From the IMG/VR virus record IMGVR_UViG_3300035396_001032, positions 1-64,000 of that record: DNA of 64,000 nucleotides. One strand, given 5' to 3'. The position numbers were made by a program, and so were the translations under genes. Below the pieces are notes generated by a model that worked only from the letters and a program-made list of their open reading frames with translations, did no database searches and was not told the origin of the DNA. This document shows, piece after piece, positions 21,489 to 62,965 of this stretch. Source of the DNA: a virus. Its lineage: Duplodnaviria > Caudoviricetes. Every line of letters begins with the position of its first letter. The first letter of the stretch is position 1.

Positions 21489-21902
21489 ATGAATTACAGC
21501 ACATTTGATATTAACAATTTCTTTATTAAGAAAGACAGCACTCTCCCTGAGTTGAAATACCCATTGATTCAACAGTTAAGAGAGCAATATGATATCAGTG
21601 ATGATATGTTGGAGAACTGTGCAGTAACGTTCTCGATGATAGATGCAAGTACTGGCAATTACCGTATTGCTAACGTTGCAGCAAATCTTGTTGTTAATAA
21701 TGACAGAGTTAATAACCCCGATGAAGAACGCTATACCTTAACATATAGGTTCAAATTGAAGCAAACCTCAAAAGGTGGTAGATTTTATGGTGAGTTTAAA
21801 ATAGATTTTCTTGGTGAAAACTGTGGAAAAATCACATTACCAACTCAGGGTCAGATAAATATCATTATTTCTGATGGAATTACAAAAACTACTGTAATTT
21901 AA
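21489..21902 (+). CDS. BppU-N-like Ig-fold baseplate/structural protein
   Basis: FFIKKDSTLPEL ... VTFSM ... LTYRF ... G.FYGEFKI ... ITLP pattern resembles BppU N-terminal-like domains. Confidence 0.5.
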   Translation: MNYSTFDINNFFIKKDSTLPELKYPLIQQLREQYDISDDMLENCAVTFSMIDASTGNYRIANVAANLVVNNDRVNNPDEERYTLTYRFKLKQTSKGGRFYGEFKIDFLGENCGKITLPTQGQINIIISDGITKTTVI

Positions 21903-21904
21903 TC

Positions 21905-21934
21905 TTGACAATCTTATTTTTTTAATTATCTTTG
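21905..21934 (+). promoter_or_regulatory. Bacteroidota primary-sigma promoter (-33 TTG / -7 TATCTTTG)
   Basis: TTG at 21905-21907, 19-nt spacer, TAnnTTTG at 21927-21934, upstream of the SNF2 ATG at 21952. Confidence 0.75.
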
Positions 21935-21951
21935 CATGATATTGATTAATT

Positions 21952-27787: not shown

Positions 27788-27795
27788 GTATTTAT
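27788..27795 (+). promoter_or_regulatory. Putative phage late promoter motif GTATTTAT
   Basis: Intergenic; 24 nt before the ATG at 27812. Confidence 0.65.
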
Positions 27796-27811: not shown

Positions 27812-28432
27812 ATGAAATTAAAAAAGAAAGACTTACTTGAAATTATCGATTCAAATGGTGAGTTAATTGGTAATAGTGCTGTTCCAACAAGTGGTAGTGA
27901 CTTGGAAAGTGCTGCCAGCAATACTACTGACAATAATGCTAAGATAGGTCAACAACCCTTCAGATATGACATGTTGGGTCGCTTTGGCTTTACACTTATG
28001 CCATTCATGGAAGGTAAGGAAAATCAGGGTCAACAAGAACAAATTAAAGATTGGACTGAACTCATGTACGAAATGTACATGAAAACCTTAGAGTATTATT
28101 ACAGAAATCCAAATAAACTAAAATCTGAATTCAGAATTCTTTCAAAAAAAGAAGAAGAAAATCCTTCAAATGAACGCACAAAAATTGAGGATTTTTGGGC
28201 AAAAGTAATTATTGATATAGTTGAGTCACACATTAAGAAGAGTGTAAAACCAATTGATGAAGCAGCAGTTGTTGAAGACAAGGTAGTTGATAAGAAAGGC
28301 GAGGATGAAATATCAAATAAGTCTGAAGATAAAGAAGTTAGAGAAAAGAAAATCGAAAAAATTGCTGGTTTGATTAACAAACTGGAGAAAAAAGATATTG
28401 ATAAGCTAATTAATTTGTTGGAGAACAAGTAA
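27812..28432 (+). CDS. Hypothetical charged protein (possible internal head protein)
   Basis: 206 aa, K/E-rich; late motif upstream; MEG, IDE and LLE motifs. Confidence 0.6.
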   Translation: MKLKKKDLLEIIDSNGELIGNSAVPTSGSDLESAASNTTDNNAKIGQQPFRYDMLGRFGFTLMPFMEGKENQGQQEQIKDWTELMYEMYMKTLEYYYRNPNKLKSEFRILSKKEEENPSNERTKIEDFWAKVIIDIVESHIKKSVKPIDEAAVVEDKVVDKKGEDEISNKSEDKEVREKKIEKIAGLINKLEKKDIDKLINLLENK

Positions 28433-29220
28433 TGTCAAACCAAGCATTATATAATAACAAGTATATCGTTCCTTCAAATATTCTTGAATATATTCGAAGA
28501 ATGATACTAACCTATAAACCAAATGATGGTCAACGTGAAAAAGCTGACCATATTTTAACTCATGGTGGTAGTGATGGTATTACATACCCCTATATGGAAA
28601 AGTTGAAGCATGACTTTAATAATAACGGATTTTCAAGTAATATTGAGTATGGTCTTGCAGGTGGTGAACTAATGAAAGCATTTGTTGAGTCAAAATTAAA
28701 TCAAGAAAGGGATGGGGTGAATAGGGCGAAACAAGTACGTCAGGACATGACATCGAACCCAAATTCTGAACTAAAACCATATCAAACACCACGTTTGAAT
28801 GAGGATAAAAAGAAAAAGAAAGAACTGAAAAAGAACGCAGTGGCTGTTATTGTGAATGATGATAATAAAATATTGTTATTAAAAAGGGCAGACAATAAGG
28901 ACATTTGGATGCCAAATAAATGGGCACTTGTTGGTGGTGCAATTGAAAAGGGCGAAACCCCACAGAAAGCATGTGAAAGAGAAATTAAAGAAGAGATTGG
29001 CTTGGAGATTAAAAAGTTTGTCAAATCTTTTAGTATTCATAGAAATGCAGATAGTGTTGAACACATTTTTGCCTGCAGGTATAAAGGTGAACCAACCGAC
29101 ATTGAACTTAATGACGAAAATACTAATTATGGATGGTATGATACAAGTGAAATGAAGTATTTGGATATTGTTCCACATTTAATGGAATATATTACACTTG
29201 TCTTTAAAAAATATGAATAA
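28432..29220 (+). CDS. Two-domain protein with C-terminal Nudix hydrolase
   Basis: Nudix box GGAIEKGETPQKACEREIKEEIG; unrelated N-terminal ~120 aa ending in RLNEDKKKKK. Confidence 0.9.
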   Translation: MSNQALYNNKYIVPSNILEYIRRMILTYKPNDGQREKADHILTHGGSDGITYPYMEKLKHDFNNNGFSSNIEYGLAGGELMKAFVESKLNQERDGVNRAKQVRQDMTSNPNSELKPYQTPRLNEDKKKKKELKKNAVAVIVNDDNKILLLKRADNKDIWMPNKWALVGGAIEKGETPQKACEREIKEEIGLEIKKFVKSFSIHRNADSVEHIFACRYKGEPTDIELNDENTNYGWYDTSEMKYLDIVPHLMEYITLVFKKYE

Positions 29221-29223
29221 TTT

Positions 29224-29231
29224 GTATTTAT
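29224..29231 (+). promoter_or_regulatory. Putative phage late promoter motif GTATTTAT
   Basis: Intergenic; 40 nt before the ATG at 29264. Confidence 0.5.
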
Positions 29232-29263
29232 AGTAAATAACAGAAAAAATTAATAATACTAAA

Positions 29264-29521
29264 ATGAGTAGATTAGAAACAATAAGTAAGGAATATTATG
29301 ATTGTTCACTTGCACAAAATGCTGCACGTTATACAGTAAATAAGGAATATTTGCCAAGTACACCAGATACAATTTCAGATGGTGACATGAAAGGTAGAGA
29401 CCCTAAAGATGGTAGTGCCTCAAGTTCAGTTGGAACAGTACTTGATATCGAAAAAAGAAATGCATTACTTGCAAGTAATAGGTATAATCAAAATAAAGAA
29501 TATAATTCAGGAAATGCATAA
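29264..29521 (+). CDS. Small hypothetical protein
   Basis: 85 aa; internal RY-x-x-NKEY motif occurs twice; TAATG-coupled to the next gene. Confidence 0.6.
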   Translation: MSRLETISKEYYDCSLAQNAARYTVNKEYLPSTPDTISDGDMKGRDPKDGSASSSVGTVLDIEKRNALLASNRYNQNKEYNSGNA

Positions 29522-30468
29522 TGTTAACTGAGGAAAAATTATTGTTCGAAAACATTAAAAACTTTCGTCATCTTGTTTCAGAAGGCGTTGGTGGAAATTC
29601 TCTTGTGGATGCCATAAACAACCATGAATGGATTTACTTATATTATTCTGGTGATGAAAAAACACCAAAAGGATATCGAACAATAAGACCTTATGTTTTG
29701 GGCACAAATAAGTCTGGCAATAAAGTACTGAGAGCATGGCAAGATAATCCAAAAAACAGTTATCATTTCGACAATAGACCAACACGTACTGATAGTCAAA
29801 ATCACGATTTTTGGTCTGATGAAGAGGGTGTGAAACCGGGGTGGCGCATGTTCCGAGTCGATAAAATATCGAAAATTTTACCAATTGGTAAGAAGTTTCA
29901 CGATTCAAATGGTGCGGTAATGATACCTGCAGGTTATCATGAAGGTGGTGATGATGATATGACAAGCATTGAAGCATATGTTTCTACAAAAACTAAACCC
30001 GATGTTGATTACAAATATTCAAAAGAAGTTCCAAGTACTGGCATGCCTGATAAGGAAGCTGTGTGGAATAGTATTCGTAGAGGTAATAAAAATAGGAAGA
30101 AAATCACGTCAAATGATATTATTAAGTTACGTGACCTTGCAAGTAAGTTTCATAAGAAAAGCCTTAGCAATTACATGGTAGTAATTGACGATAAAAACAA
30201 TTTTCAATTAATAACTACCAATGATGTTAGAACAAAAAACATTCCTGATTCTGCAATTGTAGGAAGTTTACCTTATCTTTATGATTCGATTGTTAATGCA
30301 AATGCACCAGCAGATGATAAATTCTTTAAAGACGTTAAAAACAAGGCACAGTCTGGCATTGAACAAAAGAAACAAAAGGATATGGATAAAGGATTTTCGA
30401 AAATTATGAAGGAAGAAGAAAAAATCACTACAATACCATTCAAAATAAAGACTTTTTTCAAACAATAA
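29521..30468 (+). CDS. WYL-domain-like protein
   Basis: AINNHEWIYLYY...GYRTIRPYVLG...VLRAWQ...GWRMFRVDKISKI matches the WYL SH3-like fold pattern; no N-terminal HTH recognised. Confidence 0.75.
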   Translation: MLTEEKLLFENIKNFRHLVSEGVGGNSLVDAINNHEWIYLYYSGDEKTPKGYRTIRPYVLGTNKSGNKVLRAWQDNPKNSYHFDNRPTRTDSQNHDFWSDEEGVKPGWRMFRVDKISKILPIGKKFHDSNGAVMIPAGYHEGGDDDMTSIEAYVSTKTKPDVDYKYSKEVPSTGMPDKEAVWNSIRRGNKNRKKITSNDIIKLRDLASKFHKKSLSNYMVVIDDKNNFQLITTNDVRTKNIPDSAIVGSLPYLYDSIVNANAPADDKFFKDVKNKAQSGIEQKKQKDMDKGFSKIMKEEEKITTIPFKIKTFFKQ

Positions 30469-30469
30469 C

Positions 30470-30477
30470 GTATTTAT
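30470..30477 (+). promoter_or_regulatory. Putative phage late promoter motif GTATTTAT
   Basis: Intergenic; 31 nt before the ATG at 30501. Confidence 0.55.
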
Positions 30478-30500
30478 AAAAAATAATAAAATTTTATAAA

Positions 30501-31175
30501 ATGGCAAAAACTCTTGACTTAAATAAAATAAAAGATGAAATCGATAGCCGTAAGAAGGAAAGAAATATGGTTTCATCAAGACTTGGAGAAACTGTAGGTA
30601 GTGGTATAAAACCACGTGATGAATTCTTAAATGGATTATTGACAGCATACACAACTGGCAGAGATACTGCTTCAAGCAATTTAATTAAAATCGTTGAAAA
30701 TAAGGTTGCAGCTAAACATGGCGAAGCACAGAAGCACGTAATTAGTGAAACTCCTGTTCAACAACAACAGCGTCCAGTACAGCATGGACAAGTAGATATG
30801 TCACCTGAAAGGGATGAACAATTGTTTTTTGATTTGGAAAGAAAACGTAAACAAACTCTTGCGGAATCAATTGAAAATTTCGGTAAAATTCCAGCAATTG
30901 GTGCGCCAATGCAAAACAATCCACAATATGCTGGACAACCAATGCAGATTAATGAAGCATATCTTACAGAGAATGTTAAGAATACTGTAAATAATTACTT
31001 GAGTGAAAATCTCGGTCCTATCTTCGAAGAAGCAATCAAAAGCACAATCATTGAAATGTATGCCGTTGAAAGAATCAAAGAAGTACTTACAGAAAACAAA
31101 GAAATGATAAAAACGCTTGTATATGATACAATTCGAGAAATACAAGCAGCTAACGCTAAAAAGAAAGTGCAATAA
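30501..31175 (+). CDS. Hypothetical helical protein (possible head scaffold/internal protein)
   Basis: 224 aa with a Q-rich linker; many [IL]-x-E motifs (ISE, LAE, INE, LTE, LSE); late motif upstream. Confidence 0.6.
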   Translation: MAKTLDLNKIKDEIDSRKKERNMVSSRLGETVGSGIKPRDEFLNGLLTAYTTGRDTASSNLIKIVENKVAAKHGEAQKHVISETPVQQQQRPVQHGQVDMSPERDEQLFFDLERKRKQTLAESIENFGKIPAIGAPMQNNPQYAGQPMQINEAYLTENVKNTVNNYLSENLGPIFEEAIKSTIIEMYAVERIKEVLTENKEMIKTLVYDTIREIQAANAKKKVQ

Positions 31176-31191
31176 CCATTGCACTTTTTTT
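31164..31191 (+). terminator. Rho-independent terminator
   Basis: AAAGTGCAAT-AACC-ATTGCACTTT hairpin followed by a T run. Confidence 0.8.
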
Positions 31192-31202
31192 AGCTTAAGT
31201 TT

Positions 31203-31210
31203 GTATTTAT
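31203..31210 (+). promoter_or_regulatory. Putative phage late promoter motif GTATTTAT
   Basis: Just after the terminator; 25 nt before the ATG at 31228. Confidence 0.65.
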
Positions 31211-31227
31211 GAATATAATATACAGAC

Positions 31228-34113
31228 ATGACATACGCAGAATTTCTTGAAAATATCTTAAGTGAACTACTTAAAATCAACTCATTTGCAGGTAGAATAA
31301 AATTTGCTGATGGAAACTTACAAAGAATTGGTAGTGGTAGTGGTAGAATCGTTTATGATATTGATGGTCAGAAAGTTCTAAAGCTGGCTAAAAATCCTAA
31401 AGGTGTTGCACAAAATGGTGCAGAAATGGATACTGGTCGTTATCAAGATACTCAACATATTGTTACAATTGTTTATGAAAGTGCTGATGATAATGCGTGG
31501 ATAATTTCAGAAAAAGCAAAAAAAGTTACTGAAAGAAGAATAAAAGAACTTACAGGTATTCCAAGTCTTAGTGACCTATATTACTTTCTCAGTAATTATG
31601 AGTCACAAGCTAAGGGTCGTAGACCAATTCATCGTCAAGACCAAGAACTAACAGATTTTTTCTGGGAAAATGAATTTGCAACACAGATTGGCGATTTGAT
31701 TGCTAATTACAGTCAACACGCAGGTGACATGGGAAGACCAAGTACATATGGTGAAGTACTTCGTGATGGTCAACCATCAATCGTTCTAACTGATTATGGT
31801 CTAAGTGATGAAGTGTATTCATCACACTATGAAAGAAAACCCAATAAATATCAAATGTATGAAATGTATAACTTTGCCGATGGCAATGATGATATGCTTT
31901 CAGACATTGGTAATGTTGGTCAAGACCAAAGGCGTGGAATGTGGGCATTAATTCCACAAGGTGTGGGCGATGGTGATGAACCAATGAATGAAGAATTCAT
32001 TGACTATGTTCAAAACAGAAATAAATATCCTGAAAAACGTTTACCTAATCTACCATTCTTAGCTGACAAGTTCAATGAATGTGTAAATAATATCAAAGAA
32101 ACCCTTAACGTTGTTGAAAACAAAAAATTGTTTTACAATAACTTATTGGAACTTCAAGATTACCTTGTTTCCCAGAAGTTTTATGAGAAAGAACAACTAA
32201 ATCATGAGGAATATGTTATTAATGAAGCCGATGTTCCTGATGTTCAAATGTTTAGTTTATCTGACGCAAATTATGCAACGAATATGGCAAATATCGTTGC
32301 ACAGAAATTAGGATTAACTACTCCGAAATTATTAGGTAAGGGCGAAAATGGTTTTGCATTTGAAATCAATGATAATTTGGTGTTAAAACTAACTGCAGAT
32401 GTTAGTGAAGCAGATGCTGGAATAAAACTAATGAGAGGAAACCCAAAATATCTTCCCGAAATTTTTAACATATATAAAATTGTTGATACTGAAGCGAATA
32501 AAGCATATTTTGGATTACTTGAAGAAAATATTAATGAAAAACCACTCGAAAGATTTAGAAAATTTGATGAAGACCTTGCATTGATATTCCCAAATCAAGG
32601 ACTTAATATGTTTTATAAGCCAATGAGAAGAAATTTTGATTATAACACATTGGCTGAAAAGGCGAAGGAAATTCTAACAGCTAATCCAGAAGCAAATGTT
32701 TCAGAACCCGACAGAAAAGCTGCATATGATTACGTCATTGGATTGCTGAACATCAAACAAGAAATGGATAACTTTAGTATTAAGTCAAATGACTATACCG
32801 TAATAGCAAATCTTGGATATAAAAATGGTGTTCTTAAATATTTTGACGTAGGTGGTCGTATGGGTACTCCTGAACCACCAATTGACGATAATAATCTATT
32901 ATATATTCCCGAAGATGCTACTTCTAAGTTCTCAACTATTGATTCAATAGGCAGGGATGATTTTCCAGTGTATGATAATAACGATACATCACCAATGACT
33001 GATAATAATATCAGAACTAATGAAGATTTAGAATATCGTCATGCAAGTGATGCAACTCAAGATAAATATACGATTGACGAACTTGTTGAAAGGGTTTTGT
33101 CATCAATGGCGGGGAGCAGTACTGTTAATGTAAAAAAAAAGTGTAAGTTAGGTGGTCAAGGTAATACAAGTGCTGCTTGTAATCAGGGTGATATCAGTAA
33201 CTTAGATATTAAACCACTTACTGAAGCATCAATTCCATATAATAAAACTTATTGGGGATGGGTATCACCAAGCAATGAATTTATTCAAGTTCCACAACTA
33301 CAACATGCAGAATATATTCGAACTAAATACCCAAATCTTTTCATGCTTGACGATGTATTTGAACAAGCATTTAAAGATGGTTGGGTAAGAGTTATATATC
33401 AATATTATCAAGATAGATTCTCTGGTAGTTTATCAATTAATGGTTACGATAAGAAACGTGTGAAACACGTGTTGAAAACCATGTTTTTTGACAGCATTAA
33501 ATATGGTGATAATCAAATATATTTGGCATATGAAAATCCTGATGGTGGTGACATGTTCAGAACCAATAGTGCAGATAATAAAGCAAAACTGGCGAGTTAT
33601 ATATCTGAAAACGTTTTAAATGAAACTGGTGAGGGCAATGCTCAACCATATGATGTTACGATTAAAAGAAGTGATGATTATAAAAAGGAATATTCGTTTC
33701 GAACCGAAGATAATGATTATTATGAAATCATATTTAACGAACAATCATTAGGTGATAATAAATGGTATGTTGCATTTGGTACTAAAGATGCTGATACCGA
33801 CCATTATAATTTCAATGTTGTTGTGAATAAAGGCAAGCTATATAGAGTAATGGCAACCTTATTAAAGGTGATGAAAGGCTTCATTGCTAATACAAAACCA
33901 GTTAGCATTGAAATTGAACCCACAAAAAGAAATACGATGCATGTGCAAGATAGAGGAAGATTTAAACTATATTTGCAATATATTAAGAAAAATTTACCAC
34001 CTGATTATGAATTTCTCGAAACTCATGATGCAATCTTCATAGAGAAGAAGAGAGGTGTTAGTGAAACACAATTAATATTAAATAATATTAATGAGGCTAA
34101 ATTATTATTGTAA
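31228..34113 (+). CDS. Polyvalent protein with two atypical protein-kinase-like domains and further unknown domains
   Basis: Kinase 1: IGSGSGRIVY...VLKLA..E...GDMGRPS...TDYG. Kinase 2: LGKGENGFAF...VLKLT..E...SNDYTVIAN...YFDVG. These are followed by a YWGWVSP...QHAEY domain and a C-terminal alpha/beta domain. Confidence 0.7.
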   Translation: MTYAEFLENILSELLKINSFAGRIKFADGNLQRIGSGSGRIVYDIDGQKVLKLAKNPKGVAQNGAEMDTGRYQDTQHIVTIVYESADDNAWIISEKAKKVTERRIKELTGIPSLSDLYYFLSNYESQAKGRRPIHRQDQELTDFFWENEFATQIGDLIANYSQHAGDMGRPSTYGEVLRDGQPSIVLTDYGLSDEVYSSHYERKPNKYQMYEMYNFADGNDDMLSDIGNVGQDQRRGMWALIPQGVGDGDEPMNEEFIDYVQNRNKYPEKRLPNLPFLADKFNECVNNIKETLNVVENKKLFYNNLLELQDYLVSQKFYEKEQLNHEEYVINEADVPDVQMFSLSDANYATNMANIVAQKLGLTTPKLLGKGENGFAFEINDNLVLKLTADVSEADAGIKLMRGNPKYLPEIFNIYKIVDTEANKAYFGLLEENINEKPLERFRKFDEDLALIFPNQGLNMFYKPMRRNFDYNTLAEKAKEILTANPEANVSEPDRKAAYDYVIGLLNIKQEMDNFSIKSNDYTVIANLGYKNGVLKYFDVGGRMGTPEPPIDDNNLLYIPEDATSKFSTIDSIGRDDFPVYDNNDTSPMTDNNIRTNEDLEYRHASDATQDKYTIDELVERVLSSMAGSSTVNVKKKCKLGGQGNTSAACNQGDISNLDIKPLTEASIPYNKTYWGWVSPSNEFIQVPQLQHAEYIRTKYPNLFMLDDVFEQAFKDGWVRVIYQYYQDRFSGSLSINGYDKKRVKHVLKTMFFDSIKYGDNQIYLAYENPDGGDMFRTNSADNKAKLASYISENVLNETGEGNAQPYDVTIKRSDDYKKEYSFRTEDNDYYEIIFNEQSLGDNKWYVAFGTKDADTDHYNFNVVVNKGKLYRVMATLLKVMKGFIANTKPVSIEIEPTKRNTMHVQDRGRFKLYLQYIKKNLPPDYEFLETHDAIFIEKKRGVSETQLILNNINEAKLLL

Positions 34114-34164
34114 AATAATAGACCCGTTTAGAATATTTCGTGCACTTCTATACTATTTATATTT

Positions 34165-34992
34165 ATGGGAAACAAATGGAATGATTTGGAAATAAATTTA
34201 CTAAGAAGCATTTATTCTGAAACAAATGATGCTGATATAATTACTTATTTTAGTGGACGAACATTAACATCAATTAAAGTTAAGGCAAAAAGATTAAAGT
34301 TTTATCGTAATGTTGATGTTAAAGCATCTAATAGACGTAGTGCAAGTACTGGTGAAAAAAATGGCATGTATGGAAAATCGTCAAAGATAAGTGGCAAAAC
34401 ATATGATGATTATTATGGTGTTGAAAAATCAAATTCCATAAAAAAAAAGCTGTCTATAGATAAAATTGGTAAAATTGGTTTGGCTGGCGAAAAAAATGGT
34501 ATGCATGGGAAAATACCACACAATAAAGGTATTTCACCAAATGAAACAATAAAACTGAAAATTAAAAGAGGTATTATTGACTATTGGAATAATTTAAATG
34601 AAATAGATTTAAAAAAAAGAAAAGATAAATTAAGAGAAGATTGGATTATTAAAAGGGATAAATATTCGGAAATCGATACATTACCTGAAAAAATTGCAGA
34701 AAAATTATTAATTAAGTTGTGTTTAACATATCAAAAAAAAATAAACATTGGTTATTATAATTGTGACTTTGTAGTTAATGATACAATTCTTGAAGTTCAA
34801 GGAGATTATTGGCATGGCAATCCTGAGTTTTATAATTCGTTTGATAGTATACAAGAAAAAAATATTAATCGTGATAGAAGAAAATTAAATTATTTACAAT
34901 CAAAAGGATTTAAAATAATATATTTGTGGGAAAATGATTTAAAAAAGAATCTCGATTATTGTGAAAAAACATTAATAAAAGAATTAAAATGA
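34165..34992 (+). CDS. Free-standing homing endonuclease-like protein (NUMOD3-like motifs + Vsr/DUF559-like nuclease)
   Basis: GEKNGMYGK and GEKNGMHGK repeats; C-terminal CDFVV..TILEVQGDYWHGN...RDRRK...KGFKIIYLWE; overlaps the cca start by 4 nt. Confidence 0.8.
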   Translation: MGNKWNDLEINLLRSIYSETNDADIITYFSGRTLTSIKVKAKRLKFYRNVDVKASNRRSASTGEKNGMYGKSSKISGKTYDDYYGVEKSNSIKKKLSIDKIGKIGLAGEKNGMHGKIPHNKGISPNETIKLKIKRGIIDYWNNLNEIDLKKRKDKLREDWIIKRDKYSEIDTLPEKIAEKLLIKLCLTYQKKINIGYYNCDFVVNDTILEVQGDYWHGNPEFYNSFDSIQEKNINRDRRKLNYLQSKGFKIIYLWENDLKKNLDYCEKTLIKELK

Positions 34993-36815
34993 GTAATATA
35001 CAAGACTTTATATTAAATATAAGACAAAAGTTATTTATTAAATCACTAATAACTGATTTAAAATCAGACATTTATGTTGTGGGTGGAGCAACCAGAGACC
35101 TTATACTAAATAAGCCCAATAAGGATATTGACTTAATTGTTCGAAATGTGCCAATAGATATATTAATTGCACATCTACAAAAATTTGGTAGAGTAGATGC
35201 TGTTGGTAAATCATTTGGTGTACTTAAGTTTATTGATTCTGATGGACTTGACTATGATATAGCATTACCTCGTAAAGAAATGCCAAACGGTGAAGGCGGT
35301 TATCGTGGTTTTGATGTTCAAAGTGATGAAAATCTGCCAATTGAAGACGACCTAATCAGAAGGGACGCTAAACTGAACGCAATGGCAATTAGTATTAATA
35401 GTGGAAAATTTATTGACCCATTGGGTGGTTTGGATGATATCAAAAATAAATTAATATCTGCTGCCAATCCAGATGCATTTAGTGACGACCCATTGAGAAT
35501 GATTCGGATGGTGGCTTTCGCAAGTCGTTTTGGTTTTACAATTGAGCCAGAGACTATGCAAATGATAATCGATAATGCACATCGTGTAAAAGAAATTGCA
35601 CCTGAAAGAATTTTGACTGAATTTGATAAAATAATCAAAAAGGGTAATAAATTGACAGGTGTTGAGTTGCTTGCAAATACAGGTTTATTTAAGCAGATAT
35701 TTGGTAATGAAATCAAGCCTTCAATGCTTGGTCGTAGAGATTTTGACGGTGTGCGAACTATGGGTGAATTTATATTTCTTATGACATATGGAGTTGTGCA
35801 GCATCCTGCTGCATTTTTCAAGGAGAAACTAAAGGGTGATATTGATTCATTCAAAGAGATTAAAGCACTTGAACAGGCATTTGATAACGCCAGTGCAGAA
35901 AACAGTATTGTTGCAAGAACTATTGCACACAATATGTTTGTTATTTCACCACCATCGTTACAAAGCCAGATACTGCCAACTGCAATTGAAACTGCAGCAC
36001 AGGAATTACTTCAGGGTAAATACCCAAAGACTGTGAATGAACTTGCTTTAAATGGTAATGACTTAATGCAATTAGGATTAAAGGGTAAGGAGATTGGTGA
36101 TGCACAAAAAATGATGTTATTGAAAATCTATTCAGATATTGTTGAAAATAATAAAGAAGATTTACTATCTTTGTTGGGCAAAAATGATGTCAATGAATAT
36201 GGATTCTCTGAACCTAAAAATTCTTGGGAAGCTGATGGTCAGGAAGTTAATGTAGACTTCTTTATCGAAAAATATGACCAATGGAATCAAGGTGAGAGAT
36301 TCAGAGACCCTTCAAAAGAGTCTGTTTTACGATTCTTCGAAGACGAATTTGTTGAATTAGTTGGTGATGAAAAGCTAAGACAAGAATTGCTCTGGGCATT
36401 GACAGATAGGGATGTACTTAACGAAAACGTTGAAATGAATAATATTGCATATACTGGTATCGTTCTTGATGAAACATCAAAACAGAAACTTATTAAGGTT
36501 TTCAGTAAAATGATACCCGAAGGTTGGGAAGTTATTGCACATCATATGACTTTGAACTTAGGTGCAATTGATTCTAAATATGTGCAGGATTTGGATAAGG
36601 AAATCGAACTAACTGTTGTTGATTATGCGATAGATGATAAGGTTATGGCAGTTGGTGTGGATGGCTACCCAACTAACAACAAGAAAGCACACATTACCTT
36701 AGCAGTTAATAGGCAGGGTGGCGGTAAGCCAATGATGTCAAACAGTTTAACTGAATGGAGACCAATTGAGTTTCCGCTTGTATTGAAAGGAATTGTAACT
36801 CAAGTAAGAAAATAA
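34989..36815 (+). CDS. cca: Class II tRNA nucleotidyltransferase (CCA-adding/poly(A) polymerase family) fused to a C-terminal 2H phosphoesterase
   Basis: VVGGATRDL..NKDIDL, EDDLIRRD..LNAMA and DDPLRMIRMVAFASRFGF; C-terminus has two HxT motifs (HHMTL, AHITL); no HD domain. Confidence 0.88.
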   Translation: MSNIQDFILNIRQKLFIKSLITDLKSDIYVVGGATRDLILNKPNKDIDLIVRNVPIDILIAHLQKFGRVDAVGKSFGVLKFIDSDGLDYDIALPRKEMPNGEGGYRGFDVQSDENLPIEDDLIRRDAKLNAMAISINSGKFIDPLGGLDDIKNKLISAANPDAFSDDPLRMIRMVAFASRFGFTIEPETMQMIIDNAHRVKEIAPERILTEFDKIIKKGNKLTGVELLANTGLFKQIFGNEIKPSMLGRRDFDGVRTMGEFIFLMTYGVVQHPAAFFKEKLKGDIDSFKEIKALEQAFDNASAENSIVARTIAHNMFVISPPSLQSQILPTAIETAAQELLQGKYPKTVNELALNGNDLMQLGLKGKEIGDAQKMMLLKIYSDIVENNKEDLLSLLGKNDVNEYGFSEPKNSWEADGQEVNVDFFIEKYDQWNQGERFRDPSKESVLRFFEDEFVELVGDEKLRQELLWALTDRDVLNENVEMNNIAYTGIVLDETSKQKLIKVFSKMIPEGWEVIAHHMTLNLGAIDSKYVQDLDKEIELTVVDYAIDDKVMAVGVDGYPTNNKKAHITLAVNRQGGGKPMMSNSLTEWRPIEFPLVLKGIVTQVRK

Positions 36816-36816
36816 T

Positions 36817-37323
36817 ATGGCAGATTGGAAAGAATCATCTAAACTTGGTTTTGATTTTGAAGATTTTTGTTTGAAAGATATTAACGAAAAGGTTAATCCA
36901 CTTGCATATAGAAATCAGATTAAAAGTGAATATAGCTTTTATGATATAATACTTCATGATGGTAATTTTGCTGAAAATCATCAACAAAAAACTATTGAAT
37001 GTAAGTTTGATGAAAAGGCTAATGAAACTGGTAATATTTGTATTGAAACTGGTTGTAATGGTAGATTGTCTGGATTATTGATTACGAAAGCTGATTATTG
37101 GCAGATTGGCGATGGATTTCAAATGTTTTTAATTAAAACGGATATGATTAGGACATGTATCAACAATCATCCAAATGAAATTCAATATAAAAGGAAATAT
37201 CCAGTAACACAGGAAGATGGTGTTACAAAAGATATGACATTTTATTTAATACCTAAACGATTATTTATTGAATATTGTTTAGAGGTTGCTGGAATTAATG
37301 ATATGACATATAAAGATTTATGA
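36817..37323 (+). CDS. PD-(D/E)xK restriction-endonuclease-fold protein
   Basis: G..FE.F...YDII...TIECKFD..ANETGNICIE motif arrangement. Confidence 0.6.
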   Translation: MADWKESSKLGFDFEDFCLKDINEKVNPLAYRNQIKSEYSFYDIILHDGNFAENHQQKTIECKFDEKANETGNICIETGCNGRLSGLLITKADYWQIGDGFQMFLIKTDMIRTCINNHPNEIQYKRKYPVTQEDGVTKDMTFYLIPKRLFIEYCLEVAGINDMTYKDL

Positions 37324-37886
37324 TTAAAAGATTAGTAGCATTTGACTTTGACGGAACACTGATGAATTCTCCTGAACAAGAGAATGGCATACAGTTATGG
37401 CAAGATAAAATGGGTTACCCATATCCACATAAAGGCTGGTGGGGCAGACCTGAAAGCCTTGACTTAGATGTTTTTGACATCAGACCGTTTCCAAGCGTGC
37501 TGAAACAATTAGAAAAAGAGGTTTCAACACCAGATACTTATGTGATAATATTAACATCACGTATGGAAAAGTTACGCCCACAACTCGAAGCAGTCTTAAA
37601 TAAAAACAATATTCGTGTTGATAAGGTTGACATGAAGCGTAGTGAAAGAACGAAGGGTGAGAAAATTTTAAGGTATTTAGAAGAGTTTCCAAGCATTGAA
37701 GAGATTAATGTATATGATGACCGTGATACAGATATTCAGTCATATGAGGGTATTCGTAACATGATTCCTAAAAACATAGTATTTAATATATACTTGGCTG
37801 CAAGTGGTAGTCTATCATTGCTTGAAGCCAAAAATAAAATAGTTACCATTGTAAATGAGGTGATTTCGAGTTTTATAAAAAAATAG
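37320..37886 (+). CDS. HAD-superfamily phosphatase (Swiss-Army-knife RNA-repair-like)
   Basis: Motif I AFDFDGTL, II ILTSR, III K (TKGEK), IV YDDR; the SP...GWW...ESL insert resembles HAD_SAK-type RNA-repair phosphatases. Confidence 0.8.
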   Translation: MIKRLVAFDFDGTLMNSPEQENGIQLWQDKMGYPYPHKGWWGRPESLDLDVFDIRPFPSVLKQLEKEVSTPDTYVIILTSRMEKLRPQLEAVLNKNNIRVDKVDMKRSERTKGEKILRYLEEFPSIEEINVYDDRDTDIQSYEGIRNMIPKNIVFNIYLAASGSLSLLEAKNKIVTIVNEVISSFIKK

Positions 37887-37890
37887 TAAT

Positions 37891-38259
37891 ATGAAAAAAG
37901 TATTAATTCCCGAAGATAATGACATGAATTTCTATCTGTTTACTGAAATGTTGAACGAATTTGATATTGAATTAATTCAGGTAAAAAATGGCTTACAGGC
38001 GGTGGAATATTGTGATAAGTATTCAGATGTTTGTTTAATACTAATGGATATTAATATGCCAGTAATGGGTGGAGAAGAGGCTGCGGTTATTATCAAACAA
38101 AGACATCCAGAAATTCCAATAATATCACAAACAGCATATAGTGTTTATGGTGCAGTTTCTGAGAAAAATAAAAGTTGTTTTGCACAATTCATTGAGAAAC
38201 CAATTAATATTGAGGGATTAAAAGCTATTATTAGGAAATATTGTTTCGATGAAAAATAA
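37891..38259 (+). CDS. Stand-alone response-regulator receiver (CheY-like)
   Basis: VLIPEDN, NGLQAVE, LILMDINMPVMGG (phospho-Asp), ISQTAY, IEKP. Confidence 0.92.
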   Translation: MKKVLIPEDNDMNFYLFTEMLNEFDIELIQVKNGLQAVEYCDKYSDVCLILMDINMPVMGGEEAAVIIKQRHPEIPIISQTAYSVYGAVSEKNKSCFAQFIEKPINIEGLKAIIRKYCFDEK

Positions 38260-38266
38260 AACATCT

Positions 38267-38274
38267 GTATTTAT
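38267..38274 (+). promoter_or_regulatory. Putative phage late promoter motif GTATTTAT
   Basis: Intergenic; 23 nt before the ATG at 38290. Confidence 0.65.
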
Positions 38275-38289
38275 ATTAAAAATATTACG

Positions 38290-39120
38290 ATGATTGACAT
38301 GAGATATAAACCACGTTTTTTACCACAAGTAAGTGCACCATTTGATATTGTGCTACAAAAACTTGATGATGATGGTGTGGGTTATGAAACAACAGAAGTT
38401 GACCCTAATGAATTACAACCATCACAAGGAATTACATTTAGTGATGAAGTTGGTCATGTAAATGTCGATGACATGAATCCAATTTGGATTAGCAATGACA
38501 TGAAAGTTCTTGATGGTCATCATAGAATGGTTCGTGCATTACTTGATAACATTAAAATAAAGGCAGTTAAAATTGACTTGAATGACAAGGATGCCAGTAG
38601 AGTTTTAAATAAGATTCAGGACATTTACGAATACGAGCAGTCAAGTAATATGGAAGAGGTTGTTGGACAAGATGTAATAAATTCCGACAATCAAATCAAT
38701 AGTGGAGTTAGTGACAGCGAATTTCTATCTTCATTAGAAGAAGATAATCTTGCAGTCCAGACTGAAACTCCGAGTGCCAATCAGCAATCAATTATTGCAT
38801 ATCGAAAAGAACCGATAAAAGAAAACTCAATCGTTGGAAACTTTTTTACTCTAAAGCCAGTAAAAGGATTCGATAAATATCAGATTGATTTTGAAAATCT
38901 ATTAGATACTGCTTCACTTGGCGTTACATATAAAGATGGTCAACAGCCTGTGGATATTTTGGCAAAAAGCTGGTTTCCACACGTAAACTTTGAAAAACTA
39001 AGTGAACAATATAATTCACCCTCAATTAATTTAAAAAATAAAGCTATTGCAGAAAAAGCAAGAAAAATGGGTTATGATGGAATCAAATACGGTGACACAC
39101 TAATCCAAGGATTAAAATAA
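38290..39120 (+). CDS. ParB/Srx-like domain protein with second C-terminal domain
   Basis: VDPNELQPSQ...PIWISNDMKVLDGHHR; C-terminal GNFFTL...KMGYDGIKY. Confidence 0.7.
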   Translation: MIDMRYKPRFLPQVSAPFDIVLQKLDDDGVGYETTEVDPNELQPSQGITFSDEVGHVNVDDMNPIWISNDMKVLDGHHRMVRALLDNIKIKAVKIDLNDKDASRVLNKIQDIYEYEQSSNMEEVVGQDVINSDNQINSGVSDSEFLSSLEEDNLAVQTETPSANQQSIIAYRKEPIKENSIVGNFFTLKPVKGFDKYQIDFENLLDTASLGVTYKDGQQPVDILAKSWFPHVNFEKLSEQYNSPSINLKNKAIAEKARKMGYDGIKYGDTLIQGLK

Positions 39121-39128
39121 CTAAAACT

Positions 39129-39500
39129 ATGTGCACATACAAAATTACTAACATAACAAACAGTCTTGGAAAACGTGAACACAATTTCAACGCAGTACTT
39201 AATGTTGAATATGTAGATAATATTACGAAGAAAATAATTGCTGTGAAACCGGGGGAAACCGTCTTTCTAACAGTGCCTTCACTTCCACTATCAGTACATA
39301 GATTAAGAATAAAAAACCTAATCACAGTATCTGAAATTGGAACAGTTGAACTCACTAAGTTAGTAGAAGAAGCTAAACCTAAAACAGTGAAAAAATCTGT
39401 CGTGGTAGATGATGACGAAGAAAAAATTGTTGCAGCAAAGACAGCATTCAATAAAAAAAAACTAAGTAAAAAAGAAGAGGAAACTGAGACAGAAGCCTAA
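39129..39500 (+). CDS. Hypothetical protein
   Basis: 123 aa with a charged C-terminal tail; followed by a terminator. Confidence 0.6.
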   Translation: MCTYKITNITNSLGKREHNFNAVLNVEYVDNITKKIIAVKPGETVFLTVPSLPLSVHRLRIKNLITVSEIGTVELTKLVEEAKPKTVKKSVVVDDDEEKIVAAKTAFNKKKLSKKEEETETEA

Positions 39501-39523: not shown

Positions 39524-39550
39524 AAAAGCCAACTAAATGTTGGCTTTTTT
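39524..39550 (+). terminator. Rho-independent terminator
   Basis: AAAAGCCAAC-TAAAT-GTTGGCTTTT plus TT. Confidence 0.8.
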
Positions 39551-39640: not shown

Positions 39641-41020
39641 ATGGACGGCAAAATCAGAATCTTATTTTATAACCTTGACGGTGCAGGGGTTAATTATTTT
39701 AGAACACTAACACCAGCAACTGAACTCGATAGAAATCATAGTGATGAATTTCACGTAGAGATAAATCCTGAACTGGATTTCAATGACCCAAAAATAGTTG
39801 ACTATTTAAAAACATTTCATATCATTCATTACCATCGTCAGTTTTTGGGTGAAACCAAACAGATGTTAGCACTTGCAAGTGAATTGAGAAAAGCTGGTAC
39901 AATATTGATGGTGGATATCGATGACTACTGGAACTTACATAAGAAACATCCATTCTATGCAATGAATCTTGAAAAGAAATTGCATGTTCCAATCATTGAA
40001 AACTTAAAGATTGCAGATTACGTTACAACTACTACAGATATTTTTGCATCTGAAATCCGTAAGGTAACTGGAAAAGATAATGTTGAGGTATTTTATAACT
40101 CAACTGACCCTACATGGATGAAACAATTCCAAAATAACTGGAAACCAGACCCAGATGGTAGAATTCGAATCACATATATGGCAGGTTCTTCTCACATGGG
40201 TGACGTTGAACAACTGGAAAGTGTGTTTAATGTACTTAATTCTGACCCAGAATTGAAAGACAGGTTCAAAGTAATTATCGCTGGTTGGGATACTGAAGGT
40301 AGTACTACTGACGTTACATTCAATCAGGAATTTGGTGATGAATTGCAAAAAATGGGATTGTGGACTAATCATGTTGTTAAAGCGATTAACAAGTCCAAAG
40401 GTGATATTAATCTAATCCCAATACCACAGGCATTGAAAGATAAATACAGGGATAAAGTGTTTAACCAAAAACAAAGAGATATTCAGTCAACAGAGAGTGT
40501 ATATTTGATTTATGAAAACATTCTTACTGATAATCATAGAAACATTACCAATAAAGATTATATCGAATGGCTTGGAAATTACGAAAGAAATGTAACCTAT
40601 GAAAATGAGGGTAATTTCGGCAGACGTTGGACACAAAAAGCCAATACTTATGCACAAGTACTTGATGAAACTGATATTGTAATCGCACCTCTTGCTGATA
40701 ACGAATTTAATCGAATGAAATCAAACTTGAAACAGGTAGAATGCTGGACAAGAAAACTTCCAATCGTATGCAGCGATATTCCACCATATAACGTTCATGG
40801 TAAACATATGGAAAATTGTATATTAATTCCCGCAGAAAAGAACGCACATAAGTACTGGAAGAAGTACTTGAAAAAATTAATATTAGATGCTGACCTTCGT
40901 AAGAAACTTGGTGAGCAACTATATGAAGACTTCAAAGTTGAATATAATTTGGCAGAAGTTACAAAGAAGCGTGCTGAATTTTATAAAGCAGCAGTAGCAA
41001 AAACATTAGCAATAGTTTAA
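39641..41020 (+). CDS. GT-B fold glycosyltransferase (GT4-like)
   Basis: G..YFR...P; DIDDYW; RITYMAGSSH..D; DIVIAPLADNEFNRMKSNLKQVE...PIVCSDIPPY nucleotide-sugar-binding signature. Confidence 0.85.
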   Translation: MDGKIRILFYNLDGAGVNYFRTLTPATELDRNHSDEFHVEINPELDFNDPKIVDYLKTFHIIHYHRQFLGETKQMLALASELRKAGTILMVDIDDYWNLHKKHPFYAMNLEKKLHVPIIENLKIADYVTTTTDIFASEIRKVTGKDNVEVFYNSTDPTWMKQFQNNWKPDPDGRIRITYMAGSSHMGDVEQLESVFNVLNSDPELKDRFKVIIAGWDTEGSTTDVTFNQEFGDELQKMGLWTNHVVKAINKSKGDINLIPIPQALKDKYRDKVFNQKQRDIQSTESVYLIYENILTDNHRNITNKDYIEWLGNYERNVTYENEGNFGRRWTQKANTYAQVLDETDIVIAPLADNEFNRMKSNLKQVECWTRKLPIVCSDIPPYNVHGKHMENCILIPAEKNAHKYWKKYLKKLILDADLRKKLGEQLYEDFKVEYNLAEVTKKRAEFYKAAVAKTLAIV

Positions 41021-62875: not shown

Positions 62876-62918
62876 AAAAATCATAGTATTTAAACAAAAT
62901 TGTCATAGTAAAAAAGTC

Positions 62919-62949
62919 TTGCATATTCGGATGATTTTAAATATATTTG
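62919..62949 (+). promoter_or_regulatory. Bacteroidota primary-sigma promoter
   Basis: TTG at 62919-62921, 20-nt spacer, TATATTTG at 62942-62949; ATG at 62966. Confidence 0.7.
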
Positions 62950-62965
62950 TGAAAAAATATAATAC

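Follow-up and report, generated by a model that had tools for sequence, protein, structure and literature searches.

Positions 27812–39500 of a tailed-phage sequence (IMG/VR record IMGVR_UViG_3300035396_001032, Caudoviricetes) hold a block of 13 genes, the core of which appears on balance to be a hypervariable polyvalent polyprotein, here split into a 961 amino acid (aa) and a 608-aa gene by a 275-aa gene. The window, i.e. the whole stretch of DNA that was analyzed, consists of bases 1–64000 of this 81,213-bp linear viral metagenome record. The modules of the polyprotein meet at flexible linkers with [ILVM]-x-E motifs at their ends, and the position and conservation of these joints indicate that they are probably processing sites for a T4-type head protease. 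The full interpretation, a polyvalent polyprotein with head-protease joints that would be loaded, cut and injected, merits slightly more belief than doubt, and with similarly modest confidence the block may be described as a conserved payload island of a jumbo phage that has a T4-type head and a genome of roughly 300 kb.

The CheckV completeness of the record is 27%, which makes it a fragment of a phage genome of roughly 300 kb. Every gene is on one strand (+), and the GC content is ~33%. Genes for tail-fibre and baseplate proteins, a family B DNA polymerase (PolB), an SNF2 helicase, SbcCD and a primase are present. The block is directly downstream of the DNA polymerase gene, beside the replication genes.

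Related loci, 40 in total, were obtained from two scans of viral contigs, and many are on contigs of 200–360 kb. The block is syntenic in these relatives, with the order polymerase, 206-aa protein, Nudix, small repeat protein, WYL-like protein, 224-aa protein, giant protein, 2H, HAD, 276-aa protein, 123-aa protein and glycosyltransferase. Among cultured phages, stand-alone homologues were found for the first kinase-like module of the giant only, in Xanthomonas jumbo phages; the XacN1 paper and its supplement have no virion data for the Xanthomonas homologue open reading frame (ORF).

Modules and joints of the polyprotein

The 961-aa ORF, the candidate polyvalent polyprotein, is at positions 31228–34113. 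It begins with a leader (aa 1–13), followed by a kinase-like domain (aa 14–202) and an acidic disordered tail ending in M-N-E (aa 253–255; positions 31984–31992). A helical module (aa 256–326) ends in I-N-E (aa 331–333; 32218–32226), a second kinase-like domain (aa 335–561) in I-P-E (aa 560–562; 32905–32913), and a disordered segment with a small beta module in L-T-E (aa 664–666; 33217–33225). The alpha/beta module that comes next (aa 668–794) ends in I-S-E/L-N-E (aa 792–799; 33601–33624), and a second alpha/beta module (aa 807–953) ends in I-N-E (aa 954–956; 34087–34095).

An AlphaFold2 model of this protein (mean predicted local distance difference test score, pLDDT, 79.6) displays six folded modules, at aa 1–202, 255–326, 335–561, 631–663, 668–794 and 807–961. 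The low-confidence segments are aa 203–253, 327–334, 562–630, 640–648, 664–667 and 795–806. The motifs at aa 253–255, 331–333, 560–562, 664–666 and 797–799 are in, or at the edge of, these segments (junction linkers have pLDDT <50), i.e. at accessible positions. Foldseek matches of the 961-aa protein are to the aminoglycoside-phosphotransferase (APH)/protein-kinase-like fold. The kinase-like domains are ~190 aa long, have a G-loop and Lys, and fit the description of the monophyletic, C-terminally truncated kinases of polyvalent proteins (Iyer, Burroughs, Anand, de Souza and Aravind 2017; PMC5512222). Peptidase families were searched for in the 961-aa and 608-aa proteins with Pfam, PHROGs and Foldseek and none was found.

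The 608-aa protein (positions 34989–36815), termed here CCA-2H, shows the same arrangement. A class II CCA-adding enzyme (aa 1–398) is followed by a linker with V-N-E (aa 401–403; 36189–36197), a small alpha/beta insert (aa 411–474), a linker with L-N-E (aa 477–479; 36417–36425) and a 2H phosphoesterase (aa 485–608) with two H-x-T motifs, H-M-T and H-I-T. The CCA part matches Pfam PolyA_pol (75.1 bits) and its RNA-binding domain (61.7 bits), and Foldseek aligns it with bacterial class II CCA-adding enzymes (E = 1e-17, template modelling score up to 0.75). The 2H part matches a CNPase catalytic domain (Foldseek, E = 1.8e-3) and Pfam tRNA_lig_CPD (E = 8.9e-4). In the AlphaFold2 model (pLDDT 88) the sole low-confidence segments are aa 399–410 and 475–484, which are the V-N-E and L-N-E sites. 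No tRNA genes, which could be clients of the CCA enzyme, are present in the 81 kb.

The junction Glu columns were examined in 6–36 distinct aligned segments from the relatives each. Glu is kept in 93%–100% of these at aa 255, 562, 666 and 799 of the 961-aa protein and at aa 403 and 479 of CCA-2H. The mean conservation of junction Glu is 0.94, as against 0.48 for the other 93 Glu residues of the two proteins (p = 1.9e-4), and Asp is found at a junction Glu in 1 of 143 cells.

The giant protein of the relatives ranges from 628 to 2688 aa and carries the modules of the 961-aa protein in differing order and number; in many relatives it includes the CCA-adding enzyme and sometimes the 2H domain as well. 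Among 43 distinct giant/CCA proteins, modules have been gained, lost, duplicated and reordered, and relatives continue with unrelated modules directly past the junction Glu. In an all-against-all comparison of these 43 proteins, internal C-terminal similarity ends exactly on a motif Glu in 21.4% of cases, compared with 2.5% for random interior positions. The value for the 206-aa family is 25%, and the same end-point test with 365 other ORFs of the same loci, the 206-aa family excepted, gives ~1%. When junction contexts were called blind to the motif, 34 of 83 ended exactly in it and ~25 more ended within a few residues. At least ten unrelated module families end in hydrophobic-x-Glu.

The motif-bearing points of the 961-aa, CCA-2H, 206-aa and HAD proteins are sites of a swap, an insertion, a gene split or a stop codon, and the motifs in these four proteins clearly exceed chance by position and conservation. 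An intein-like insertion in the glycosyltransferase served as a negative control and its flanks are without the motif. (This insertion is found in homologues, L025 17312–19756 and L027 16040–17872, of the glycosyltransferase at window positions 39641–41020; it starts with Cys after A-G-S and ends with G-N before Ser.) DNA microhomology was considered as a cause of the junction motif and rejected: P3 can be I, L, V or M, and the Glu codon is the sole constant one. Because P2 and the codons also vary, the conserved feature is at the peptide level.

A preliminary description of this DNA had placed the motifs at module junctions. For the 961-aa and CCA-2H proteins this is borne out by the near-invariant Glu and by exchange or splitting exactly after the Glu in ~40 relatives. 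All ten motifs that it listed ([ILVM]-x-E and a TNE variant) are in frame at the coordinates it gave; the coordinate for TNED differs by one base from the start of the codon, and TNE does not fit [ILVM]-x-E.

The boundary between the giant and CCA-2H shows how the chain has been divided. The CCA module of fused giants follows [I/L/M]-x-E directly and begins at the Met1 position of free CCA genes, and the 961-aa protein ends five residues past the I-N-E that matches this fused junction. In one relative a protein terminates on precisely the Glu that corresponds to aa 479 of CCA-2H, and the free 2H genes (127 aa) start at a Met four residues after the same Glu. As judged from these sequences, the mature pieces would be identical whether the genes are fused or split.

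The 275-aa gene (positions 34165–34992) is located at this boundary. It has a Vsr/DUF559-like C-terminus and two GEKNGM-x-GK repeats, and matches Pfam DUF559/MTES_1575 (E = 0.001) and a PHROG endonuclease (E = 7e-7). It is present in some relatives only, always at the giant/CCA split, and the flanking ends match the fused junction. It looks like a homing-endonuclease-like insertion that divides an ancestral gene of ~1570 aa and would not be cargo itself, which counts against a claim that the entire block is cargo.

Two smaller proteins have similar joints. The 206-aa protein (positions 27812–28432) has a 10-aa leader ending in L-L-E (27833–27841), which is kept in 24 of 24 relatives, an internal junction I-D-E/V-V-E (28253–28276) and a C-terminal L-L-E. 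Inserts of ~80 aa, two different ones in two relatives, lie precisely between I-D-E and V-V-E. The 188-aa HAD phosphatase (positions 37320–37886) is an RNA-repair enzyme of the ‘Swiss Army Knife’ type; its Pfam HAD_SAK_1 score of 28.7 bits exceeds the cut-off. Its domain is followed by L-L-E (aa 167–169; 37818–37826) and V-N-E (aa 178–180; 37851–37859), and ~300-aa versions in relatives (L005 16439–17356, L008 12462–13409, L010 5626–6537) have an extra ~115-aa module just after these motifs. The added module, which is absent from this genome, has Y-H-G-T, S-F-T-S and E-W motifs and is reminiscent of an ADP-ribosyltransferase (ART).

The number of motifs is by itself ordinary. The block has 89 [ILVM]-x-E, with 72 expected from shuffles, and the rest of the genome has 309, with 282 expected. 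Per 100 aa there are 2.33 in the block, 2.65 in the helicase, 1.80 in PolB and 2.44 in SbcCD. Within the block the excess is confined to the 961-aa protein (27 vs 15.6) and the 224-aa protein (12 vs 5.4). A comparison of linkers with domain interiors and with control genes, proposed in the preliminary description, gives a divided result: the raw density matches that of the controls, and the linkers of the 961-aa protein are enriched relative to its interiors (odds ratio 2.3, p = 0.045). As there is little or no raw excess, frequency alone neither supports nor refutes the polyprotein idea. It should be noted that an 886-aa ORF beyond the window (genome positions 70399–73059; L001 8399–11059) has 23 motifs, with 15.7 expected; it was considered as a scaffold homologue and rejected, having no similarity to the scaffold of a relative.

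Head genes, leader and promoters

Genes for capsid, portal, terminase and prohead protease (S77, S78 and ClpP) were searched for in the 81-kb record and none was recognizable, which is attributed to the record being a fragment. The prohead protease predicted to be elsewhere in the genome is thus missing from the portion at hand and is found in the relatives: a Peptidase_S77 gene (the T4 gp21 family) is beside a gp23-family capsid gene in all six near-complete relatives that share the block. In three of the six, the protease is a plain 235–246 aa protein. In the other three (G001, i.e. L046 8002–9846; G003; G007) an intein-like insert that has a LAGLIDADG-type motif interrupts the gene and lengthens the frame to 614–653 aa.

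A Glu-rich scaffold-like gene is between the protease and capsid genes of the relatives. The N-terminal region of the capsid protein has six motifs in 60 residues; the last of these is a conserved I-N-E ~20 residues before the conserved core, a position that appears analogous to the T4 gp23 maturation site.

The N-terminus of the giant resembles a T4 capsid-targeting sequence. T4 IPII and IPIII start with MKTYQEFIAE (T4 record), where targeting is directed by residues 4 and 7, and processing by residues 8 and 10 (review PMC9026906). Giants of this clade start with M-T-[YF]-x-[ED]-F, and ~70% have [LI]-x-E at residues 11–13. The N-terminal pattern is found in 1 of the 73 ORFs of this genome and in 22 of 817 ORFs of the relatives, and every instance is a giant. 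A leader of 8–12 residues ending in the motif is retained by giants whose first module is a later one. The resemblance to the T4 sequence is suggestive.

The preliminary description had stated that the block is driven by the same motif as the baseplate genes, and this is confirmed: GTATTTAT is upstream of the transcription units of the block and of the baseplate-wedge operon. There are 26 copies, with 8.4 expected, and nearly all are on the coding strand. One promoter-like copy (positions 27788–27795) is 24 nucleotides (nt) before the 206-aa gene, and further copies at 29224, 30470, 31203 and 38267 precede the next transcription units of the block. The motif is 23–40 nt upstream of the block genes that start at 27812, 29264, 30501, 31228 and 38290. 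It is also upstream of the baseplate-wedge operon (43536), a 1462-aa gene (48846) and the tail-fibre gene (77057), as well as before an exonuclease gene, a deaminase operon and the amidase (lysis) gene.

The relative L004 has kept GTATTTAT at the same positions of the block. In a complete relative it is found before the scaffold-capsid operon, and a one-mismatch variant is before the protease gene. GTATTTAT is therefore the phage's own general, non-host promoter class, which includes the late structural genes and is not limited to them. TATTTATA, found upstream of the 275-aa gene, ends 3 nt before the ATG and was for this reason left out of the promoters.

The only clear exceptions to the GTATTTAT class are host-type TTG...TAnnTTTG elements of the Bacteroidota kind (window positions 21900–21951 and 62900–62965; genome positions 76150–76190), which precede the helicase-polymerase operon, the SbcCD gene and the exonuclease gene. 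The presence of these elements suggests a Bacteroidota host. A terminator-like hairpin followed by a T-run (39524–39548) closes the block.

Other genes of the block

The 262-aa protein (positions 28432–29220) consists of an N-terminal domain, a Lys-rich linker with L-N-E (28795–28803) and a Nudix hydrolase at aa 135–245 (Pfam NUDIX, 71.2 bits). The 85-aa protein (29264–29521) has one copy of a ~52-aa unit and no [ILVM]-x-E. This unit has the core S-D-G-D-x-x-G-R-D-P and is present as three tandem copies in some relatives (L003, L004 and L018 were compared). The 315-aa protein (29521–30468) has a 21-aa leader ending in V-S-E (29575–29583), followed by a WYL-like region at aa ~27–74; the assignment as WYL-like is weak (Pfam E = 0.029, Atlas lead 0.90). 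The 224-aa protein (30501–31175) is Glu-rich, and its surplus of motifs is given above.

Downstream of CCA-2H, a 168-aa protein (36817–37323, phrog_13596) is present in some relatives only. The HAD gene is followed by a 122-aa stand-alone receiver (REC) protein (37891–38259; Pfam Response_reg, 58.5 bits), which was found in two relatives only and has no kinase partner. It fits the divergent phage Rec domain tied to NAD/ADP-ribose-processing enzymes in jumbo phages (Iyer et al. 2021, PMC7824862).

The 276-aa protein (38290–39120, phrog_2859) has a D-G-H-H-R motif and a conserved M-E-E at aa 121–123. Identification as a ParB-like protein or an ART was rejected: the D-G-H-H-R motif and weak Atlas leads (ART-PolyVal 0.83, ParB_N 0.76) are accompanied by no Pfam or PDB match. 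The 123-aa protein (39129–39500) is encoded by the last gene of the block.

Mechanism, alternatives and meaning

The following mechanism is proposed. By means of a short N-terminal leader the chain would enter the core of the assembling prohead, just as the internal proteins of T4 do with their capsid-targeting sequence, and the S77 (gp21-type) protease would cut after each junction Glu to give separate enzymes. The freed enzymes would remain inside the head and later enter the cell together with the DNA; there they may modify proteins of the host and restore tRNA 3′ ends that its defence nucleases have attacked. The same junction logic would apply to the 206-aa and HAD proteins. If the joints are sites of a T4-type head protease, then loading, cutting and delivery with the DNA would follow by the T4 precedent. 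Cleavage, head targeting, injection and the biological targets are what we infer; by analogy with T4, capsid loading and injection of the modules is close to an evenly balanced matter.

A broader proposal is made tentatively and with somewhat less assurance. The capsid may be the vehicle for a shuffled arsenal of enzymes, in which one leader serves up to ~15 modules, the head protease doubles as a polyprotein processor, and injected CCA and 2H enzymes pre-empt tRNA-cleaving defences before phage gene expression.

The preliminary description had proposed that the block genes are head-loaded polyproteins that are cut and injected. The part of this that stands is supported by the junctions, the S77-containing head module of the clade and the shared promoter motif. 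The raw motif frequency does not support it, and for the Nudix, WYL-like, REC, 276-aa and 123-aa proteins there is no junction evidence.

Several observations weigh against loading and cutting. The head genes and the protease are not found in the 81-kb fragment, and nucleotide and protein searches of cultured phages yielded no close relative. The GTATTTAT class is broad and also drives the non-structural genes listed above. Raw motif density is near chance and like that of the polymerase and helicase. The junction at aa 333 keeps Glu in 71% of segments, and 7 of 24 relatives have lost it. In most relatives, 2H is encoded on its own as a free-standing domain. The likeness of the giant N-terminus to a targeting sequence involves about five residues, and a leader-like N-terminus is also present in the stand-alone homologues of Xanthomonas jumbo phages. 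CCA-2H, the free 2H of most relatives, HAD, Nudix and several others have no N-terminal leader or propeptide, and on a strict T4 model such leaderless split-off genes would not be head-targeted. Lastly, the CCA-adding enzyme could equally serve late in the cytoplasm.

One alternative, considered unlikely, is that the proteins are ordinary, uncut, cytoplasmic multidomain enzymes of RNA repair and counter-defence. The [ILVM]-x-E motifs would in that case be a folding or solubility feature of linkers, or a by-product of a proteome rich in Ile, Leu, Asn and Glu, and the shuffling would be recombination in disordered linkers. It agrees with the composition-like motif density, the location beside replication genes and the lack of leaders on several block proteins, and jumbo phages with cytoplasmic CCA-adding, 2H, HAD and Nudix enzymes are known (PMC7824862). 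It leaves unexplained why at least ten unrelated module families end in hydrophobic-x-Glu, why Asp almost never replaces the Glu (the single cell in 143), why break points in the intein insertion and in other families are free of the motif (~1%), and why proteins that start at a junction carry short leaders ending in the motif.

The same junction evidence would be expected of a true polyprotein that is cut after the junction Glu in the cytoplasm, by free S77 or another Glu-specific protease, and is never loaded into the capsid, the fusion serving stoichiometric co-expression. The leaderless free CCA, 2H and HAD proteins suggest function without packaging and thus favour this possibility, which is nevertheless improbable: the T4 gp21 protease acts inside the prohead only (review PMC9026906), the giant has a leader like a capsid-targeting sequence, and profile searches detected no other protease domain in the block.

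It is very improbable that all 13 genes form one capsid-delivered kit that includes the Nudix, WYL-like, REC, 276-aa and 123-aa proteins. Shared promoters and conserved synteny would be in keeping with such a kit, as would the conserved sites in the Nudix protein (aa 122–124, kept in 88% of relatives) and the WYL-like protein (aa 19–21, the V-S-E, kept in 25 of 25, i.e. 100%). Conservation of single motifs was rejected as diagnostic without junction evidence, since the PolB and glycosyltransferase controls have fully conserved [ILVM]-x-E at a similar rate. No fission, fusion or insertion was seen in the relatives at the sites of these five proteins, most of their genes are without a leader, and the 275-aa gene is endonuclease-like.

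The proposed loaded and cut polyprotein has counterparts in several known systems. Polyvalent proteins, the closest of these, have Pol-beta nucleotidyltransferases and a family of truncated kinases among their domains; packaging in the head and delivery with the DNA are predicted for them (PMC5512222). Like these, the giants are very large phage proteins with many unrelated catalytic domains and extreme architectural mosaicism. They differ in that processing of polyvalent proteins is assigned to built-in peptidase (MPTase) domains (PMC5512222), whereas here no peptidase module was detected and the joints carry the motif of a separate T4-type prohead protease. In addition, the tRNA-repair modules (CCA-adding and 2H) are part of the chain. 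The lack of a detectable protease domain in the chain also distinguishes it from self-processing viral polyproteins.

The resemblance to the T4 cargo proteins IPI–III and Alt includes the T4-type head module of the relatives (S77, scaffold and gp23-family capsid), [I/L]-x-Glu sites, late-type expression, and a possible short targeting leader at the N-terminus, in which T-Y-x-E-F precedes [IL]-x-E. T4 trims one or two terminal propeptides from single-function proteins, whereas the internal cuts predicted here would free up to ~15 modules per chain, in the manner of a viral polyprotein.

Head proteolysis in giant phages of the phiKZ/SPN3US type (gp175/gp245) relies on a Glu-specific prohead protease, which matures many internal, ejected head proteins and makes multiple cuts in long propeptides. 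Its sites are A/S/G-x-E, where P3 is small (Ala), and 13 of 14 mapped sites of the SPN3US type remove N-terminal propeptides of structural or ejection proteins, the 14th being the C-terminal propeptide of the protease itself (PMC10052503). No multi-enzyme polyprotein is described in that system (PMC10052503).

In jumbo phages, RNA-repair toolkits combine CCA-adding, 2H, HAD and Nudix enzymes with a divergent receiver domain and are predicted to counter defences that target tRNA (PMC7824862). The enzymes are treated there as cytoplasmic; here they are in or beside a chain with protease-type joints.

If the proposal of a loaded and cut polyprotein is correct, one mechanism would unite the injected polyvalent proteins with the capsid targeting and gp21 trimming of T4, and the prohead protease would act like the protease of a viral polyprotein. 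Gene fusion at a protease-site linker would be a route by which new effectors enter the capsid, and this would be the first example of ready-made tRNA-repair enzymes being delivered along with the genome. Injected effectors of uncultured T4-type phages could then be predicted by a sequence rule, namely a leader combined with flexible joints that hold a conserved hydrophobic-x-Glu. The arrangement also suggests a natural design for multi-protein loading of T4-type capsids.

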